From NCBI GenBank assembly GCA_965213685.1, contig CBDBZY010000031.1, forward strand, positions 160,001 through 224,000: a stretch of 64,000 nucleotides of DNA, given 5' to 3'. This document shows positions 774 to 44,699 of this stretch, in pieces (position 1 is the first letter of the stretch; each line of letters begins with the position of its first letter). A model generated the notes under the pieces. The model was not told where the DNA came from and searched no databases. It worked only from the letters and a program-made list of their open reading frames with translations. Source of the stretch: a bacterium. Its GTDB lineage: Bacteria; UBA8248. The position numbers and the translations under genes are program-made.

Positions 774-859
774 GGAGGGATGGCCGAGCGGCCGAAGGCG
801 GTGGTCTTGAAAACCACTGAGCGAAAGCTCCGGGGGTTCGAATCCCTCTCCCTCCGCCA
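774..859 (+). tRNA. tRNA-Ser(TGA)
   Basis: GGAGGGA...TCCCTCC-GCCA acceptor, anticodon arm GTGGT-CT-TGA-AA-ACCAC, long variable arm, GGTTCGAATCC T-loop. Confidence 0.95.
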
Positions 860-949: not shown

Positions 950-1041
950 GGAGAGATGGCCGAGTGGCTGAAGGCGCTCGCCTGCTAAGCGAGTAGGCTG
1001 GGAAACTGGCCTCGAGGGTTCGAATCCCTCTCTCTCCGCCA
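950..1041 (+). tRNA. tRNA-Ser(GCT)
   Basis: GGAGAGA...TCTCTCC-GCCA, anticodon arm CTCGC-CT-GCT-AA-GCGAG, long variable arm, T-loop; TAGAAT -10-like box at 931-936. Confidence 0.95.
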
Positions 1042-5653: not shown

Positions 5654-5795
5654 GAATCCTGCGATGGAGACGACCGGCCAGGCGCCCTCGTGGCGCCCGG
5701 GAGTATCCGCTTACCGCTGCTTCCTTCCGGACCTGACGGGGTTCACAGGCTCCCGCCGCACGAGACCCGACCGGCCGTCTTCATCGCAGGCTCCC
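5654..5795 (-). ncRNA. ffs: Signal recognition particle RNA (small bacterial type, about 140 nt)
   Basis: Minus strand has GTCAGGTCCGGAAGGAAGCAGC core inside a long closing stem; upstream of dnaX; TTCCCA-17-TAGGAT promoter at 5831-5803. Ends approximate. Confidence 0.9.
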
Positions 5796-40090: not shown

Positions 40091-42466
40091 TCAGAATTCC
40101 TTTCGCAAGCCCACCAGCAGGTTGAGCGCGAGGTCCGATGCCGCGTGCCCCGGATTGTGCGAAACGACCGCCTCCGCCCGCAATTCGCCGTCGAACAGCC
40201 CCCGTCCGACCCAGCGGGCCGTCAAGTCAACCTGCCTGCCGGAGGGAACGAGGCCTGCCGAGAACGATTCGCGCAGGACGGCGCCGTCCCGGGTGCGTCC
40301 GATCGGCAGCGTGATCCGCGCCGACCCGTTTTCTATCCGCGGCGGCTGGGACAGCGCAAACGTGATCTCGTCGCGCCCCCAGAACCGGCTGGCGCGCAGC
40401 GAAAGCGCACTCGTGGTCAGCTGCGAGAAGCCGTCGATGACGCCGCCGGCCGCACCCGGTGCGACCAGGCCGACCTCGGCGTCGAGGACGAGGCGCCACC
40501 CTCCCCATTCGGCGGCCGCCTCGAACCCGGCGAAAACGTTGTCGGCCGAAAGCCTCCCGAAGGCGCCCTCCGCCGTGGAGCCGAGGACGCTTTCCTCCTC
40601 CCGAAGCCACCCGACGCGCACGCCGAACGGAGCGTCCGGCGGTCGCCAGGCCAGGTATGCGCCCACTTCCGACGCCTCGTTCGAGAGCGGGTCGGCGGCG
40701 GCGAACGTCGCCGCCTCGAGGCCGCCCCGCGCCTGGAAGGCGAAGGTCGCGGCGCCCTCCGCGAGGTTGAGCAGACTGCTTTCGGCATTCGCCGGCGACT
40801 CGTGGAGGCCGAACCGCCATGCGCCCAGGCGGACGGCGCGCGCACGCGCGCCCACCGTCATCCGCGTGCCGCGCGCGGCGGGCCAGGCGCCGACCCCCTC
40901 CCGGGGCGATGAGACGGGACGGCCGACCCGCGTCAGGGAAGAGGGGCGGGCGGCGGAGCCGGTGAACTGCGAAGCCTCGAACCAGAACGGCGCGCCCAAG
41001 GCGTCGAACGCCGCTATTTCGCGCCCGGCCAACGAGCGCGAGAGGCCGTCCCCGAAGGCGGCGCCCGTCCTGAAGCGGGTGGCCTGTATGTCGGGACCGC
41101 CGCCGCCGACCCGCCCGCCCATGCTGACCCGCGCCGCCTCCACCGGCGAGACCGCAGCGCCCAGGTCCATCGCGCCCTGCCCGTAGATGGAGGAGGTGCC
41201 GTCATCCCGGTCGGCCGCGTATACGCCGCTCTTGTCGGCGGTCGCGAAAAGCCGCGTGACCAGGTCCCTGTTGGAGAGCTGGCCGCGAAAGAACTGCTTC
41301 ATCAGCGCGAGGCCGCCGGCGACCATGGGCGCGGCGAAAGAGGTGCCATAAGTGATGCCGTATAGGAACTCTCCGGGCTGGGGCGGAGGGGAGCCGAAAA
41401 ACGCGACCGTGACGTCGACGCCGGGGGCGGCGATGCACCAGCGCCCGGCAATCCCGCAGCGGTTGGAAAAATCGGCGATCTCCCCGTCCCGATCCAAAGC
41501 CACCACGACGACGCTATGGCCCCGGAGTTCGGGCAGCCGGGCAACCGCCCCGCCGTCAATGCTGGGCGAGGTCGCCCGGTGGGCATAGCCCGTAGGACTT
41601 GCCGAATCGGAAAAGCAGTTCTCATCAATCCCCGGACTGCAGGGTCTGCCGTGGGTGTTGCCTGCGGCCCAGACAAAAATCGCCGGATCCGCCACGCCCC
41701 TCTGCGCGATCACCTCGAGTTCCCGGCCAAGCGCGGCGCGCAACGCGTCTGCGTCATGGTTCTCGATGAACGCGTCGGGGGTGCCGTAGCTGTTGTTGAC
41801 GATGTCGACGCCGCTTCGCAACACCTCCCGATACGCGTCCGCGTAGTCGAACGAACTCTTGCGCGGATCATCCCCTGGGAGGTGAGGGCCGATAGGTATG
41901 GTGAACACCTTGAAGTGGGCGTCGTGGGCGATGCCGACGAAGCCCGCCCCGTTCGGCTGTGCGGCCATGACGCTCGTGACGGCGGTGCCATGCGAAGACT
42001 CACCCAAACGGAAATCCCCATGCTTCTCGTCCGGCAGCCCCTGGAGGCGGATTTCCGTCAAGCTCGCACCCTCGAGCTCGTAATGGGTGAGGTCGACCCC
42101 CGTATCTATGACGCCGATGGTCACGCCGGTTCCGGGCTTCGTCTCCGCGCCGTGCTTCACGGCGAGTGCCGCATGGGCCTCGTGCGCGTTGACGCTTCGG
42201 AGTCCCCACTGCCCCGGGAATTCGCGCCCCCCGCTGGATCCTCCGCTGAATTCGAAGTCCGCGAGAATATCAGCGGCGCGCGCATCCCGAAGGCGGAGGA
42301 ACGCCTCCTCCGAGATGCATCCATGAGCGGCGGTCTCGACGCAGGGAACGACAGGGGCAGGCGCGGCAGTCCGTGAACCGCCGCCGCCCCCGCCGCCGCA
42401 GCCGGACAGGACAAGGAGGAACGACAGCCCGAGGCAGGAGGCAAAACCGCGAGTGCGAACGAACAT
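40091..42466 (-). CDS. S8 (subtilisin-like) serine peptidase lipoprotein with C-terminal beta-barrel-like domain
   Basis: LSGC-G7 N-terminus, VIDTG, SHGTAV, AAGN, FSNRCG, GTSFAAP; terminal Phe. Confidence 0.9.
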   Translation of the reverse strand: MFVRTRGFASCLGLSFLLVLSGCGGGGGGGSRTAAPAPVVPCVETAAHGCISEEAFLRLRDARAADILADFEFSGGSSGGREFPGQWGLRSVNAHEAHAALAVKHGAETKPGTGVTIGVIDTGVDLTHYELEGASLTEIRLQGLPDEKHGDFRLGESSHGTAVTSVMAAQPNGAGFVGIAHDAHFKVFTIPIGPHLPGDDPRKSSFDYADAYREVLRSGVDIVNNSYGTPDAFIENHDADALRAALGRELEVIAQRGVADPAIFVWAAGNTHGRPCSPGIDENCFSDSASPTGYAHRATSPSIDGGAVARLPELRGHSVVVVALDRDGEIADFSNRCGIAGRWCIAAPGVDVTVAFFGSPPPQPGEFLYGITYGTSFAAPMVAGGLALMKQFFRGQLSNRDLVTRLFATADKSGVYAADRDDGTSSIYGQGAMDLGAAVSPVEAARVSMGGRVGGGGPDIQATRFRTGAAFGDGLSRSLAGREIAAFDALGAPFWFEASQFTGSAARPSSLTRVGRPVSSPREGVGAWPAARGTRMTVGARARAVRLGAWRFGLHESPANAESSLLNLAEGAATFAFQARGGLEAATFAAADPLSNEASEVGAYLAWRPPDAPFGVRVGWLREEESVLGSTAEGAFGRLSADNVFAGFEAAAEWGGWRLVLDAEVGLVAPGAAGGVIDGFSQLTTSALSLRASRFWGRDEITFALSQPPRIENGSARITLPIGRTRDGAVLRESFSAGLVPSGRQVDLTARWVGRGLFDGELRAEAVVSHNPGHAASDLALNLLVGLRKEF

Positions 42467-43804: not shown

Positions 43805-43897
43805 TGGCGGAGAGGGGGGGATTCGAACCCCCGAGGCACCTTGTGGGCGCCTATACGATTTCCAGTCGTACTCCTTCGGCCTCTCGGACACCTCTCC
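43805..43897 (-). tRNA. tRNA-Ser(GGA)
   Basis: Minus strand GGAGAGG...CCTCTCC-GCCA, anticodon arm TACGA-CT-GGA-AA-TCGTA, long variable arm. Confidence 0.95.
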
Positions 43898-44017
43898 TCG
43901 GCGCGAGAGTCTGTATATCACGGACGGCTCCGCCTCGCCAGGGATTGCGGATGCCTGTTGACTTTTCCCCTCCTTTCCCCGATGATTCCCGGTACGTCAG
44001 AAAGGAGGTGATCCTAT

Positions 44018-44056
44018 ATGAAAACAGACTGTAGGGACGAGGTGGCTGGCGCTTAG
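44018..44056 (+). CDS. 12-aa small ORF MKTDCRDEVAGA
   Basis: ATG 3 nt after a maximal Shine-Dalgarno sequence; TAG stop. Confidence 0.5.
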   Translation: MKTDCRDEVAGA

Positions 44057-44129
44057 GGGAGAGAACCCTGAGGAGGTTCCCGGGGTCATCTTCGCCCAGG
44101 CGAATCCCCACCAGCCCACCGCAAAGGTG

Positions 44130-44158
44130 AAACCCCGGCCCGGGAGGGCCGGGGTTTT
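44130..44158 (+). terminator. Rho-independent terminator-like hairpin
   Basis: AAACCCCGGCCC-GGGA-GGGCCGGGGTTTT. Confidence 0.75.
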
Positions 44159-44237
44159 CGCAACTTTCGTGCGCGGGGAAAACCGCCAAGGCTTCCTCCC
44201 GCATTTTTCCGAATGCTTAGATAAGGAGCGTGTCCGC

Positions 44238-44699
44238 GTGCCTCCGACAACAAACTGGACGGTGTATCTCTCGGGCGAAGTGCATACGGACTGGCGGGAG
44301 CGCATCCGCGAGGGCGCCCGGAAAGCGGGCCTGCCGGTCACCTTCCTGGGCCCGGTCACCGACCACGACGCCAGCGACGACTGCGGCGCGTCCATCCTGG
44401 GCGAGGAGGAAAACCCGTTCTGGAGAGACCGCAAGGGCGCCGGCGTCAACGCCATCCGAACGCGGACGCTCATCGAGAAGGCGGACGTCGTGGTCGTTCG
44501 ATTCGGAGAGAGATACAGGCAGTGGAACGCCGCTTTCGACGCGGGCTACGCGGCGGCGCTCGGAAAGGCCATCATCACCCTGCACGGGGCGGGACACGCC
44601 CATGCGCTCAAGGAGGTGGACGCCGCCGCCATGGCGGTGGCGGAAGCGCCCGAGCAGGTGGTGAGAATCCTGAACTACGCCATCAACGGCGCCTTGTAG
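44238..44699 (+). CDS. YtoQ family protein
   Basis: VYLSGEVHTDWR, PVTDHDASDDCG, WNAAFDAGYA, LKEVD. Confidence 0.88.
   Translation: MPPTTNWTVYLSGEVHTDWRERIREGARKAGLPVTFLGPVTDHDASDDCGASILGEEENPFWRDRKGAGVNAIRTRTLIEKADVVVVRFGERYRQWNAAFDAGYAAALGKAIITLHGAGHAHALKEVDAAAMAVAEAPEQVVRILNYAINGAL

Follow-up and report, generated by a model that had tools for sequence, protein, structure and literature searches.

Introduction

The closest described kind of RNA to the one considered here is represented by the alpha-proteobacterial small mRNAs rreB and rreR (Hahn et al. 2016, RNA Biol, PMC5711450). According to the available text of that report, rreB co-sediments with the 30S subunit, is weakly translated and is stabilised by replacement of its start codon. 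In addition, overproduction of rreB leaves growth unchanged, a finding that speaks against a simple titration of ribosomes, and the synthetic RreB and RreR peptides are unstructured. Our literature search returned no rreB paper after 2016. Another small RNA to be compared is CC2171 (RF01867) of Caulobacter, which, by the accessible part of a preprint, is also expressed in Methylorubrum (bioRxiv 10.1101/2022.01.24.477521).

A further family, Ms_IGR-5 (RF02471), was first found in Mycobacterium smegmatis and is described in Rfam as an "Actinobacteria sRNA". In the accessible portions of the respective sources, ribosome footprints are reported on homologs of Ms_IGR-5 in both M. abscessus and M. 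smegmatis, a signal that is not specific as the non-coding RNAs 6C and F6 are also footprinted (PMC4974804); RNA-seq has picked up the RNA in S. lividans (PMC8079986), and in S. avermitilis it is listed as a transcription unit (PMC8780764). The literature searched, within the text available, merely lists Ms_IGR-5 as an sRNA and does not link it to an extended Shine-Dalgarno (SD) sequence or to a 12-codon open reading frame (ORF).

Here, we describe an RNA locus in a 64,000-nt stretch of bacterial DNA, hereafter the window, for which the original prediction had proposed either a ribosome-binding RNA or a regulated micro-peptide. Taken as a whole, that interpretation is partly supported. In particular, the window RNA is a discrete unit built around an exceptionally long SD, which makes a ribosome-binding RNA the right class; the association of rreB with the 30S subunit (PMC5711450) and the footprints on Ms_IGR-5 (PMC4974804), as far as the available texts of these sources go, point by analogy in the same direction.

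Organization of the locus

The proposed promoter, TTGACT-17-GATGAT, is indeed present at the position reported in Table 1, and its pattern is found at one site against 0.1 expected. Its geometry is kept across the host phylum, which comprises 51 genomes in one class: relative to the modelled 5' end, TTG[AGT]C occupies -38 to -33 in all 34 distinct phylum sequences and a -10-like hexamer lies at -13/-12 in 33 of them, the spacer between the two boxes not being conserved. An anti-SD sequence that had been suggested upstream, CCTCCTTTC (43969-43977), falls inside this spacer and is thus probably not transcribed; nor is it conserved in the relatives. Transcription is predicted to start near A43994, both ends of the RNA being predictions from the sequence.

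The unit is kept in all 22 congeneric genomes (BLAST, 81-88% identity), with a conserved block that corresponds to positions 19-219 of the query (43958-44158 of the window) and extends from the -35 box through the terminator. The covariance models R1 and R2, the latter built from the host phylum only, align to 43994-44159, and the fold z-score of the predicted RNA is -3.87. The view that 43994-44158 would form a discrete small transcription unit is supported. The divergent tRNA-Ser noted in the original prediction is a tRNA-Ser(GGA), and a divergent tRNA gene lies upstream in all 12 loci examined of the window's family (Ser-GGA in six, Cys-GCA in six) and in none of five from the class's other family.

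Table 1. Positions of the predicted features in the window
Feature	Position	Strand	Details
Divergent neighbour tRNA-Ser(GGA)	43805-43897	-	context, outside the RNA
Sigma-70-type promoter	43958-43986	+	-35 TTGACT 43958-43963; 17-nt variable spacer; -10 GATGAT 43981-43986
Predicted transcript (small mRNA/sRNA)	43994-44158	+	~165 nt; based on conserved block, covariance models, fold z-score
P0 helix, 5' strand (CGUC)	43995-43998	+	pairs with 44036-44039
Extended SD, 16-nt perfect 16S 3'-end complement	43999-44014	+	based on the genome's own 16S and duplex energy
12-codon ORF MKTDCRDEVAGA	44018-44056	+	ATG 44018-44020; stop TAG 44054-44056
P0 helix, 3' strand (GACG), codons 7-8	44036-44039	+	pairs with 43995-43998
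GAGGUGGCUGG, internal second SD-like motif (GAGGUG)	44039-44049	+	44041-44049 is the P1 5' strand
Three-way junction interior	44056-44109	+	GGGGA 44056-44060 with UCCCC 44105-44109
P1 helix, 3' strand (CC.G.CCACC)	44111-44120	+	resembles the 16S anti-SD
Intrinsic terminator	44129-44158	+	13-bp G+C-rich stem, GGGA loop, U tract

The 16S complement

The extended SD, AGAAAGGAGGTGATCC, begins 5 nt into the predicted transcript. The proposed complementarity to the 16S rRNA proved exact when compared with the genome's own 16S 3' end, as had been suggested for a check: reverse-complementing AGAAAGGAGGTGATCC gives precisely the 16 nt that end the only 16S gene detected, whose 3' end reads ...GGATCACCTCCTTTCT and is followed by aagg. 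By an arithmetic estimate, such a 16-mer is expected around 0.004 times by chance in 8 Mb. A 12-mer core of this sequence has five occurrences in the genome, namely the RNA locus, the 16S gene, one helicase-like coding frame and two AT-rich contigs, so that the RNA locus is the sole non-rRNA, non-coding site in the high-G+C part of the genome; the copies in the coding frame and in the AT-rich contigs were rejected as paralogs. The predicted duplex with the 16S tail comprises 16 bp at -29.9 kcal/mol, to be compared with generous best-possible SD energies for 53 ORFs of the window that have a median of -15.6 and reach -23.5 at the strongest. Within the phylum, the extended SD is nearly invariant.

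RNA fold and covariation

The fold modelled for the window RNA leaves one unpaired 5' nucleotide, followed by a four-pair helix, P0, whose loop holds the 16S complement, the start codon and codons 1-6. Downstream, the motif GAGGUG is locked in the helix P1 against a CACC-containing strand, and the stop codon lies within a three-way junction, the interior of which contains two inner helices and a conserved GGCGAAU (44099-44105). The original prediction missed P0, which encloses the SD as well as the start codon and which we assess as the best-covarying helix, and described the region 44041-44120 as one long hairpin; the imperfect structure is real and covariation-supported, the correct form being a three-way junction closed by 44041-44049/44111-44120. 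The GC terminator was correctly recognised and is likewise supported by covariation. The proposed stem over the start codon (UCCU/AGGG) fared less well, as it is paired in only 64.4% of phylum cells.

In the phylum, P0 is paired in 99.3% of cells and has two-sided changes in three of its four pairs; in Actinomycetota the corresponding figures are 93.8% and three of four compensatory pairs. P1, whose GAGGUG is invariant in 34/34 phylum sequences, is paired in 96% of cells with two compensatory pairs in the phylum, and in 97.4% with three in Actinomycetota. The junction-interior helices (6-8) are 83-92% paired, with ten of 13 pairs changed on both sides, and the terminator stem is 98.6% paired, ten of 13 pairs being compensatory. 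Over all helices, 94.5% of phylum cells are paired compared with 40-54% for slid partners, and two-sided changes occur in 25/44 pairs compared with 6-10 for slid partners, values that were reached in none of 500 shuffles; for such figures it has to be considered that alignment A4 had been fitted to the modelled structure, a procedure that works in favour of pairing, and that related genomes are non-independent samples. In Actinomycetota, where the alignment was made by MAFFT and not fitted to the structure, 95.9% of cells are paired versus 26-43% with slid partners, and 7/17 pairs are compensatory, again matched by 0/500 shuffles. The P0 clamp consists of 4 bp around a loop of about 40 nt, is weak alone and is missing from the single-sequence minimum free energy fold. 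Three small helices that RNAalifold placed within the SD loop were rejected and left out of model R2 since none of their pairs is changed on both sides.

The mini-ORF

The ORF MKTDCRDEVAGA that had been read in this transcript exists, with its coordinates corrected to those of Table 1. An in-frame start is found in 34/34 phylum sequences (ATG in 30, TTG in four); the ORF has 12 codons in 29 of them and 14 in five, and stops are TAG in 29 and TGA in five. In the window's family, ATG is located 9-11 nt from the SD; the class's other family starts at a TTG or ATG that lies 2 nt past the 16S-matching stretch. When sequences of four phyla are considered, start and stop are at fixed places in 118/119, with an ORF end 12-20 nt past GAGGUG, and each of the other frames ends there in 0/118. 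ATG, GTG and TTG are all used as start codons, and TAG, TGA and TAA are all used at the one stop position.

The position of the ORF is kept and the peptide is not: the identity of its residues goes along with RNA pairing, and one phylum makes use of three frames. Sequences of this phylum, that of genome G061, whose record is titled Candidatus Eisenbacteria, read GAGGUG in three frames (eight, five and two sequences), with unrelated peptides, and these frame changes are compensated such that the ORF end does not move. In Actinomycetota, codon 7 is either CGU (Arg) or UGU (Cys), in step with the 5' leader base with which it pairs (G-C in 30, A-U in 22). Within the host phylum the peptides share a motif, C-x-x-E-V-[AT] in the 12-residue forms and C-x-x-x-E-V-[AT] in the 14-residue forms, of which E-V-[AT] only is common to Actinomycetota, and these are the codons that make up a strand of P1. 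ORF position 5 is W, R or G, all specified by xGG codons, and in a genus-level alignment no variation at synonymous sites is seen for codons 5-9 in 23/23 sequences, with residue changes at codons 3, 4 and 10-12. The last three residues vary as T/A, G/A/E/V and V/A/D/T in the phylum and as A/T, A/V and R/S/G in Actinomycetota; together with the different frames in a third phylum, this goes against the earlier suggestion of a micro-peptide with a degron-like C-terminus of small residues. The best reading of these sequence patterns is that selection would act on the RNA fold and on translating a short frame with a fixed end, the peptide itself probably not being selected.

Kinship to Ms_IGR-5 and distribution across genomes

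When scanned at the Rfam gathering thresholds, no family is found at the locus. Below these thresholds, the RF02471 model matches the window RNA at 21.8 bits (E 0.003 on 261 nt, 0.02 genome-wide), and Rfam annotation misses it as the gathering score is 45. The alignment is full-length, with model positions 1-184 of 184 on 43994-44166, and is the sole RF02471 match in the 8-Mb genome at E<=1. The two models recognise each other's members. In the 6.8-Mb genome of a Mycolicibacterium, R2 finds a single match genome-wide, with an E of 1.2e-10, and all 15 actinobacterial loci tested against RF02471 are members (64-190 bits). Moreover, at E<=0.01 R2 retrieves 70 of 77 loci from a pattern scan, namely all 69 actinobacterial ones and one Eisenbacteria locus, and 0/7 chance matches to the scan pattern, which serve as the control; the pattern used for gathering contains three shared motifs, so that these motifs are not independent evidence and the R2 scores there are partly circular. 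The host phylum itself is not actinobacterial: of the genomes tested, those of Mycolicibacterium and Streptomyces (G062, G063) fall outside it.

The element order is the same in the two RNAs. Ms_IGR-5, like the window RNA, has a short 5' leader pairing with the 4 nt up to and including GAGGUG's first G (P0), a long SD of the GAAAGGAGGUG[AG]UCC type, a 12-codon ORF that ends five codons after GAG, a GAGGUGRC paired with GYCACC (P1), a GGCNAAU in the junction and a terminal hairpin. The differences concern the 16S complement, which in the window RNA is an uninterrupted 16-mer followed by an ATG start, whereas in most actinobacterial members the complement contains a G (giving a G-U wobble) or a U, and the start is TTG or GTG, as well as the junction interior and the phylum of the host. 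By these model and motif comparisons, the window RNA is an unrecognised, sub-threshold distant relative of RF02471. Novelty had been set against a match to an already characterised family, and the outcome lies halfway, as the RNA is a relative of RF02471 below threshold and resembles rreB, and neither of these has a known function.

As to its distribution, R2 has matches in 43/51 genomes of the host phylum and in 23/41 genomes of the Eisenbacteria-titled phylum, to which genome G061 belongs (22/40 without the unpublished genome G078). One real match was obtained among 41 genomes of another phylum, and no real match among 121 Pseudomonadota sampled or among 41 genomes from the phylum to which a Lachnospiraceae record belongs. 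Several candidates were discarded. Two R2 matches are false, one being the end of a groEL-like gene plus a terminator (L224) and the other an AT-rich terminator (L226); weak R1 matches in two genomes (G024 and G028, 21-23 bits) were not confirmed by R2; the one pattern match in viral contigs was unsupported by R2; and a pattern search for an rreR-like gene in a Rhodobacterales-titled MAG gave a single match, in a coding frame. Overall, the alignments show one shared predicted design in at least four phyla, consisting of a clamp helix, a complement to the 16S tail, a short frame with a fixed end and a helix resembling an SD/anti-SD pair.

Comparison with rreB, rreR and CC2171

By their available description, rreB and rreR can be set beside the window RNA as analogs. 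Both are stand-alone RNAs of about 165 nt with their own promoter and terminator, these being predicted for the window RNA, and carry 16-17 nt that are perfectly complementary to the 16S 3' end before an ORF of 14 or 18 codons, compared with 16 nt and 12 codons in the window. As in the window RNA, predictions leave the complement single-stranded in its 5' part only, and rreB also adjoins a tRNA gene. According to the same text, the complement of rreB and rreR includes the first base of a GTG start, whereas the ATG of the window RNA is located 3 nt past the complement, and 30S binding has been demonstrated for rreB, whereas for the window RNA it is suggested by analogy.

The consensus of CC2171 starts with the same GAAAGGAGGUGAUCC, followed by GUG, and like the window RNA contains a long-range helix around inner hairpins as well as a terminator. 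Its model aligns end-to-end to the window at 21.6 bits, against a gathering score of 75. The similarity is limited to the SD block and the terminator, the consensus being without the P0 clamp and the GAGGUG/CACC helix.

Proposed mechanism and alternative explanations

We consider it likely that the locus is an independent small-mRNA gene of the extended-SD kind and a distant homolog of Ms_IGR-5, for which docking on the 30S subunit and translation would matter and the peptide would not. The exposed 5' part of the long SD may dock on the anti-SD tail of a free 30S subunit, with a tightness far greater than that of any ordinary mRNA, and the full 16-bp duplex along with the closed P0 clamp would then hold a standby complex. 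Placement of the AUG into the P site would need P0 to be opened, and probably the 3' end of the duplex as well, so that translation of the mini-ORF would be limited. A translating ribosome would in turn unwind P0 and P1 and terminate inside the junction; since the 5' end would no longer be held once P0 is open, translation could thereby be coupled to the decay of the RNA. We infer 30S binding, the standby state and the coupling to decay from the sequence and from what is described for rreB. Candidate roles include a read-out or buffer of free 30S subunits or of initiation capacity, or a guard of the 16S 3' end.

The competing readings mostly differ in which part of the unit they take to be the product. 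That the ORF is incidental and never translated, the RNA being a non-coding trans-acting sRNA or a ribosome decoy, would agree with the strong covariation at the RNA level, with a peptide that is not conserved between phyla, with the weak translation of rreB (in the available text of PMC5711450) and with a full duplex that leaves only 3-4 nt before the AUG. We nevertheless judge it unlikely, given that start and stop stay in place in 118/119 sequences while the other two frames never end there, and that the frame shifts of one phylum are compensated with the ORF end kept. Somewhat more improbable is a micro-protein reading, in which the gene would make the 12-residue peptide with its Cys...Glu-Val core and the RNA features would only serve to express it very strongly. 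The ORF and its motif in one of the two forms are present throughout the 34 phylum sequences, and the very strong SD is at 9-11 nt from ATG in the window's family, as such a reading would predict; however, what is shared with Actinomycetota is reduced to the E-V-[AT] encoded by the P1 strand, the Arg/Cys alternation at codon 7 covaries with the leader, the W/R/G at position 5 keeps to xGG, the three frames of the Eisenbacteria-titled phylum give unrelated peptides, and synonymous sites are frozen at codons 5-9 while codons 3, 4 and 10-12 vary. The lack of structure in the analogous synthetic RreB and RreR peptides, reported in the available text of PMC5711450, also argues against it.

A cis-acting role, in which the RNA would be a leader or peptide-dependent attenuator of the downstream YtoQ-family gene (44238-44699; Pfam PF11071), is very improbable. 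Leader-peptide attenuators do share with the window RNA a short ORF, a structured RNA and a terminator, as well as a co-oriented gene downstream in the window's genus: the YtoQ-family gene is co-oriented and begins about 80 nt past the terminator, and a YtoQ-like gene follows in 21/24 rows of the genus-level alignment, as judged by eye. In contrast to attenuators, no downstream gene is conserved family-wide and the terminator is the constant end of the conserved block, the spacer to ytoQ being unconserved. Indeed, other sequence lies downstream in 3/24 rows, in 51/63 Actinomycetota loci the ORF closest downstream is encoded by the opposite strand (by crude GC3-based ORF calls), and the window RNA reveals neither an alternative antiterminator pairing nor a run of regulatory codons. 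The probability that the match arose by chance, or that the locus is what remains of a decayed rRNA operon on the opposite strand, is negligible. The minus strand does carry 16 nt identical to the 16S end and then a tRNA gene, but the identity stops at exactly 16 nt on both sides, with flanks that differ, which indicates that it is not an rRNA fragment; moreover, there is no SSU match on either strand at the locus, and promoter, ORF, covarying helices and terminator are conserved in four phyla.

Returning to the reading as an extended-SD small mRNA, a broader version of it can be advanced very tentatively, and we regard it as rather doubtful. The window RNA and Ms_IGR-5, perhaps with rreB and CC2171 as analogs, might represent an ancient housekeeping ligand of the 30S subunit spread over multiple phyla, a translational counterpart of 6S RNA. 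It would dock along the entire single-stranded 3' tail of the 16S rRNA in a standby state kept by the P0 clamp, be consumed by its own translation as the opening of P0 sets the 5' end free, and either sense or buffer free 30S subunits or initiation capacity or shield the 16S 3' end against nucleases in slow growth.

Significance

Extended-SD small mRNAs have been described since 2016 in alpha-proteobacteria only, with no function assigned, and Rfam has carried Ms_IGR-5, now tied to the window RNA, as an sRNA of Actinobacteria with no known role. The present analysis separates the peptide, which is not conserved, from the RNA fold and the translation event itself, both of which are. In addition, the kinship to Ms_IGR-5 opens the question to the M. 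smegmatis and Streptomyces models. Should the RNA not be a general 30S ligand, it would still stand as a clearly delimited orphan RNA family in need of a broader Rfam model; if it is one, the translation machinery would gain a widespread regulator.

Sequence features of the predicted transcript

The original prediction of a perfect 16-nt complement to the 16S rRNA 3' end was borne out against the genome's own 16S, which ends in ...GGATCACCTCCTTTCT followed by aagg. Because perfect complementarity stops on both sides after exactly 16 nt, an origin of this stretch as an rRNA fragment is rejected. The single 16S gene detected in the genome lies on the same contig as the RNA, ~114 kb distant. The 12-mer core of the complement occurs in five copies in the 8-Mb assembly, and those besides the RNA site and the 16S gene are one in a helicase-like frame and two in AT-rich contigs. 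The predicted duplex between the Shine-Dalgarno sequence (SD) and the 16S tail spans 16 bp at -29.9 kcal/mol; the best SD energies of 53 window ORFs, in a deliberately generous estimate, have a median of -15.6 and reach -23.5 at the strongest.

The candidate promoter TTGACT-17-GATGAT is likewise present, and its position places the predicted start near A43994, five bases 5' of the complement. Its box geometry is kept in the class, with a TTG[AGT]C box at -38..-33 in 34/34 distinct sequences and a -10-like hexamer at -13/-12 in 33/34, separated by a variable spacer. The upstream "anti-SD" CCTCCTTTC that had also been claimed sits in this spacer and is not conserved.

In the window's own assembly, C18:98740 (L002) and C41:66279 (L006) belong to two AT-rich contigs, unlike the high-G+C genome. 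The assembly measures 8.0 Mb vs 2.9-4.6 Mb in 22 congeners and probably includes DNA from another organism.

Features of the RNA gene and its surroundings, in window positions
Feature	Position	Strand	Remarks
tRNA-Ser(UGA)	774-859	+	
tRNA-Ser(GCU)	950-1041	+	
Small SRP RNA	5673-5772	-	72.6 bits
Lipoprotein-like subtilase (PF00082)	40091-42466	-	791 residues; long C-terminal region without Pfam match
Divergent tRNA-Ser(GGA)	43805-43897	-	just upstream of RNA gene
Sigma-70-like promoter	43958-43986	+	pattern in sequence
Helix P0	43995-43998 with 44036-44039	+	99.3% paired, 3/4 pairs compensatory
16-nt 16S complement, AGAAAGGAGGTGATCC	43999-44014	+	read from sequence
12-codon ORF	ATG 44018 to TAG 44056	+	read from sequence
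Helix P1	44041-44049 with 44111-44120	+	supported by covariation analysis
Three inner helices of junction	within junction	+	supported by covariation analysis
G+C-rich terminator	44129-44158	+	sequence; 10/13 stem pairs compensatory

Conservation and genomic context

By BLAST, the RNA stretch is present in 22/22 other genomes of the genus (identity 81-88%) and in the one sampled genome of a second genus of the family, and no match was found in the single sampled genome of a third. Nearly all matches cover query 19-219, that is window 43958-44158, exactly from promoter to terminator. A covariance model derived from the genus (R1) matches 45/51 class genomes at E<=0.01, and a second one (R2), built from 34 distinct class sequences and no actinobacterial one, matches 43/51 at E<=0.001 (37/41, 5/7, 0/1 and 0/1 in families f1, f4, f2 and f3), where related genomes are non-independent samples, the E-values of home-made models are rough, and the 51 genomes constitute the entire phylum sample, all from this class. 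Sequence comparison thereby identifies the RNA as a conserved, discrete unit.

In the window's genus, the RNA is followed by a YtoQ-family gene (PF11071). A role as leader of the downstream gene is rejected, since conservation stops at the terminator, another neighbour follows in 3/24 rows of the genus alignment, and 51/63 actinobacterial loci among the matches listed have their nearest downstream ORF on the other strand (crude ORF calls). These observations thus argue for a stand-alone gene. Upstream, a divergent tRNA gene lies just beside the RNA gene in 12/12 loci examined in the window's family (including L054-L061 and L203-L206), its identity differing by genus between Ser-GGA (6) and Cys-GCA (6); the count is 0/5 in the other family of the class. 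This adjacency, as well as that of the alpha-proteobacterial small mRNA rreB to tRNA-Gly (PMC5711450), may point to a control shared with promoters of stable RNAs.

RNA structure

Across the 34 class sequences, 94.5% of cells are paired vs 40-54% with partners slid by 1-3 columns, and 25/44 pairs carry changes on both sides vs 6-10 when slid, in a model-fitted alignment that leans towards structure; 0/500 shuffles reached the observed values. The small helices that RNAalifold places within the SD loop showed no covariation in these sequences, and just 64.4% of cells are paired in the stem originally proposed at the start codon. P0 pairing closes a loop of ~40 nt in which the long SD, the AUG and the first six codons lie. 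A second SD-like word, GAGGUG, opens the strand 3' of P0; its partner strand in P1 contains CACC and resembles the 16S anti-SD. Within the complement, the first 11 nt have a mean unpaired probability of 0.62 and the last 5 nt one of 0.42.

Another SD-like word, GAGGAGG (44070-44076; GAGGAGA in most congeners), lies within the three-way junction and is paired with UCUUC (44089-44093). In the window RNA, the stop codon lies immediately 5' of a junction helix and overlaps it, and a UGA stop is found in a small-hairpin loop in Streptomyces loci (e.g. L092) and in family f4 (L062-L066).

Kinship with known RNAs and wider distribution

In a relaxed-threshold Rfam search, the whole unit was matched by Ms_IGR-5 (RF02471), an actinobacterial sRNA, with 21.8 bits (cut-off 45) and by CC2171 (RF01867) with 21.6 bits (cut-off 75), and each model has this locus as its sole genome-wide match at E<=1. 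CC2171, an sRNA reported to be expressed (bioRxiv 10.1101/2022.01.24.477521), has only the SD block and terminator in common with the window RNA, whereas Ms_IGR-5 shares the whole element order. A pattern of three shared motifs, run over species genomes, collected at least 116 stretches. Among the 80 listed, 69 come from Actinomycetota-titled records and have the same build as the window RNA, three are of the window's own type, one stems from a record bearing the title Candidatus Eisenbacteria and seven are chance or coding matches. R2 matched 70 of 77 listed loci at E<=0.01, namely all 69 actinobacterial ones, a set ascertained with motifs that the models also contain, and the Eisenbacteria locus, with 0/7 chance matches. 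Among the matches listed, 15/15 actinobacterial loci tested against RF02471 are members (64-190 bits). When the 69 listed sequences are aligned with MAFFT, P0, an SD-adjacent GUCC:GGAC helix and P1 are 95.9% paired vs 26-43% when slid, and 7/17 pairs are compensatory.

Searched genome-wide with R2, a Mycolicibacterium genome (E 1.2e-10) and the Eisenbacteria-titled MAG G061 (E 3.4e-8) each yielded a single match. In samples under strict filters, where a zero means not found in the genomes searched rather than absent, it matched 23/41 genomes in the phylum of G061 (22/40 leaving out the unpublished G078) and 0/41 in that of a Lachnospiraceae record; two matches, one real (L225) and one false, were obtained in 41 genomes of the phylum of a Deltaproteobacteria-titled MAG, and one match, a false one, in 121 Pseudomonadota.

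Streptomyces transcriptome papers list Ms_IGR-5 as an sRNA (PMC8079986, PMC8780764), and ribosome footprints are reported on its homologs in M. abscessus and M. smegmatis, as on other non-coding RNAs (PMC4974804). Outside the original Ms_IGR-5 paper and supplementary files, the literature search found no paper noting the long SD or 12-codon frame of Ms_IGR-5, nor one linking it to rreB. In Kitasatospora, a co-oriented tRNA precedes the Ms_IGR-5 gene by ~110 nt, and the two may be co-transcribed (tRNA-Met in L111; a partial match cut by the locus end in L118).

Reading frame versus peptide

An in-frame start is found 7-11 nt after GGAGG in 34/34 phylum sequences (ATG 30, TTG 4), 29 of the ORFs having 12 codons and five having 14 (stops TAG 29, TGA 5). 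Among the actinobacterial matches listed, 68/69 have a start codon (TTG 35, ATG 21, GTG 12), the ORF having 12 codons in 67 and 13 in one, and the stop (TAG 56, TGA 9, TAA 3) always comes five codons after GAG. Over four phyla, an SD-proximal start with a frame ending 12-20 nt past the first G of GAGGUG is present in 118/119 sequences, and the other two frames end there in 0/118 each.

As for the peptide, only Glu-Val-[Ala/Thr] is common to the phyla, and those codons form the P1 strand. Actinobacterial codon 7 is Arg (CGU) or Cys (UGU), tracking the paired leader base (G-C 30, A-U 22, G-U 3, other 14 in the 69 listed loci), and position 5 varies among Trp, Arg and Gly, all encoded by xGG codons. 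Three reading frames run through GAGGUG in the phylum of G061 (8, 5 and 2 of 15 sequences). In a sub-lineage of that phylum (L209, L211, L215, L218, L222), the frame is shifted by indels within the variable N-terminal part, which makes GAGGUG encode Gly-Gly, yet the ORF ends at the unchanged spot, with peptides ending ...GGGCS. These loci provide a clean natural test in which translation is separable from the identity of the peptide. Since the frame is kept, residues follow the RNA pairing and three frames are used, selection appears to act on the RNA and on a translatable frame ending at a fixed place, and not to keep the peptide. The idea of a micro-peptide with a degron-like C-terminus finds no support, as start and stop positions are kept while the peptide varies.

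Proposed mode of action

The closest published analog, rreB, is described as a small mRNA from Bradyrhizobiaceae, 165 nt long, that combines a 17-nt 16S-end complement with a 14-codon GTG ORF; it co-sediments with 30S, is weakly translated, is stabilised by start-codon replacement and gives no phenotype upon overexpression, and the same study reports rreB-like genes, among them rreR, from four alpha-proteobacterial orders (Hahn et al. 2016, PMC5711450). In the most likely working mode of the window RNA, the 5' part of the complement could seed pairing with the 16S tail, as proposed for rreB, because it is exposed in the loop. The full 16-bp duplex would leave just 3 nt before the AUG. The P0 strands, one lying 5' of the SD helix and the other at +19..+22, could not stay paired on an mRNA threaded through the 30S channel, so that two states should alternate, one closed, docked and non-translating and the other open and translating. 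A ribosome reaching the stop would unwind P0 and P1, and opening of P0 would free the 5' end otherwise paired, which would fit the stabilisation of rreB on start-codon removal.
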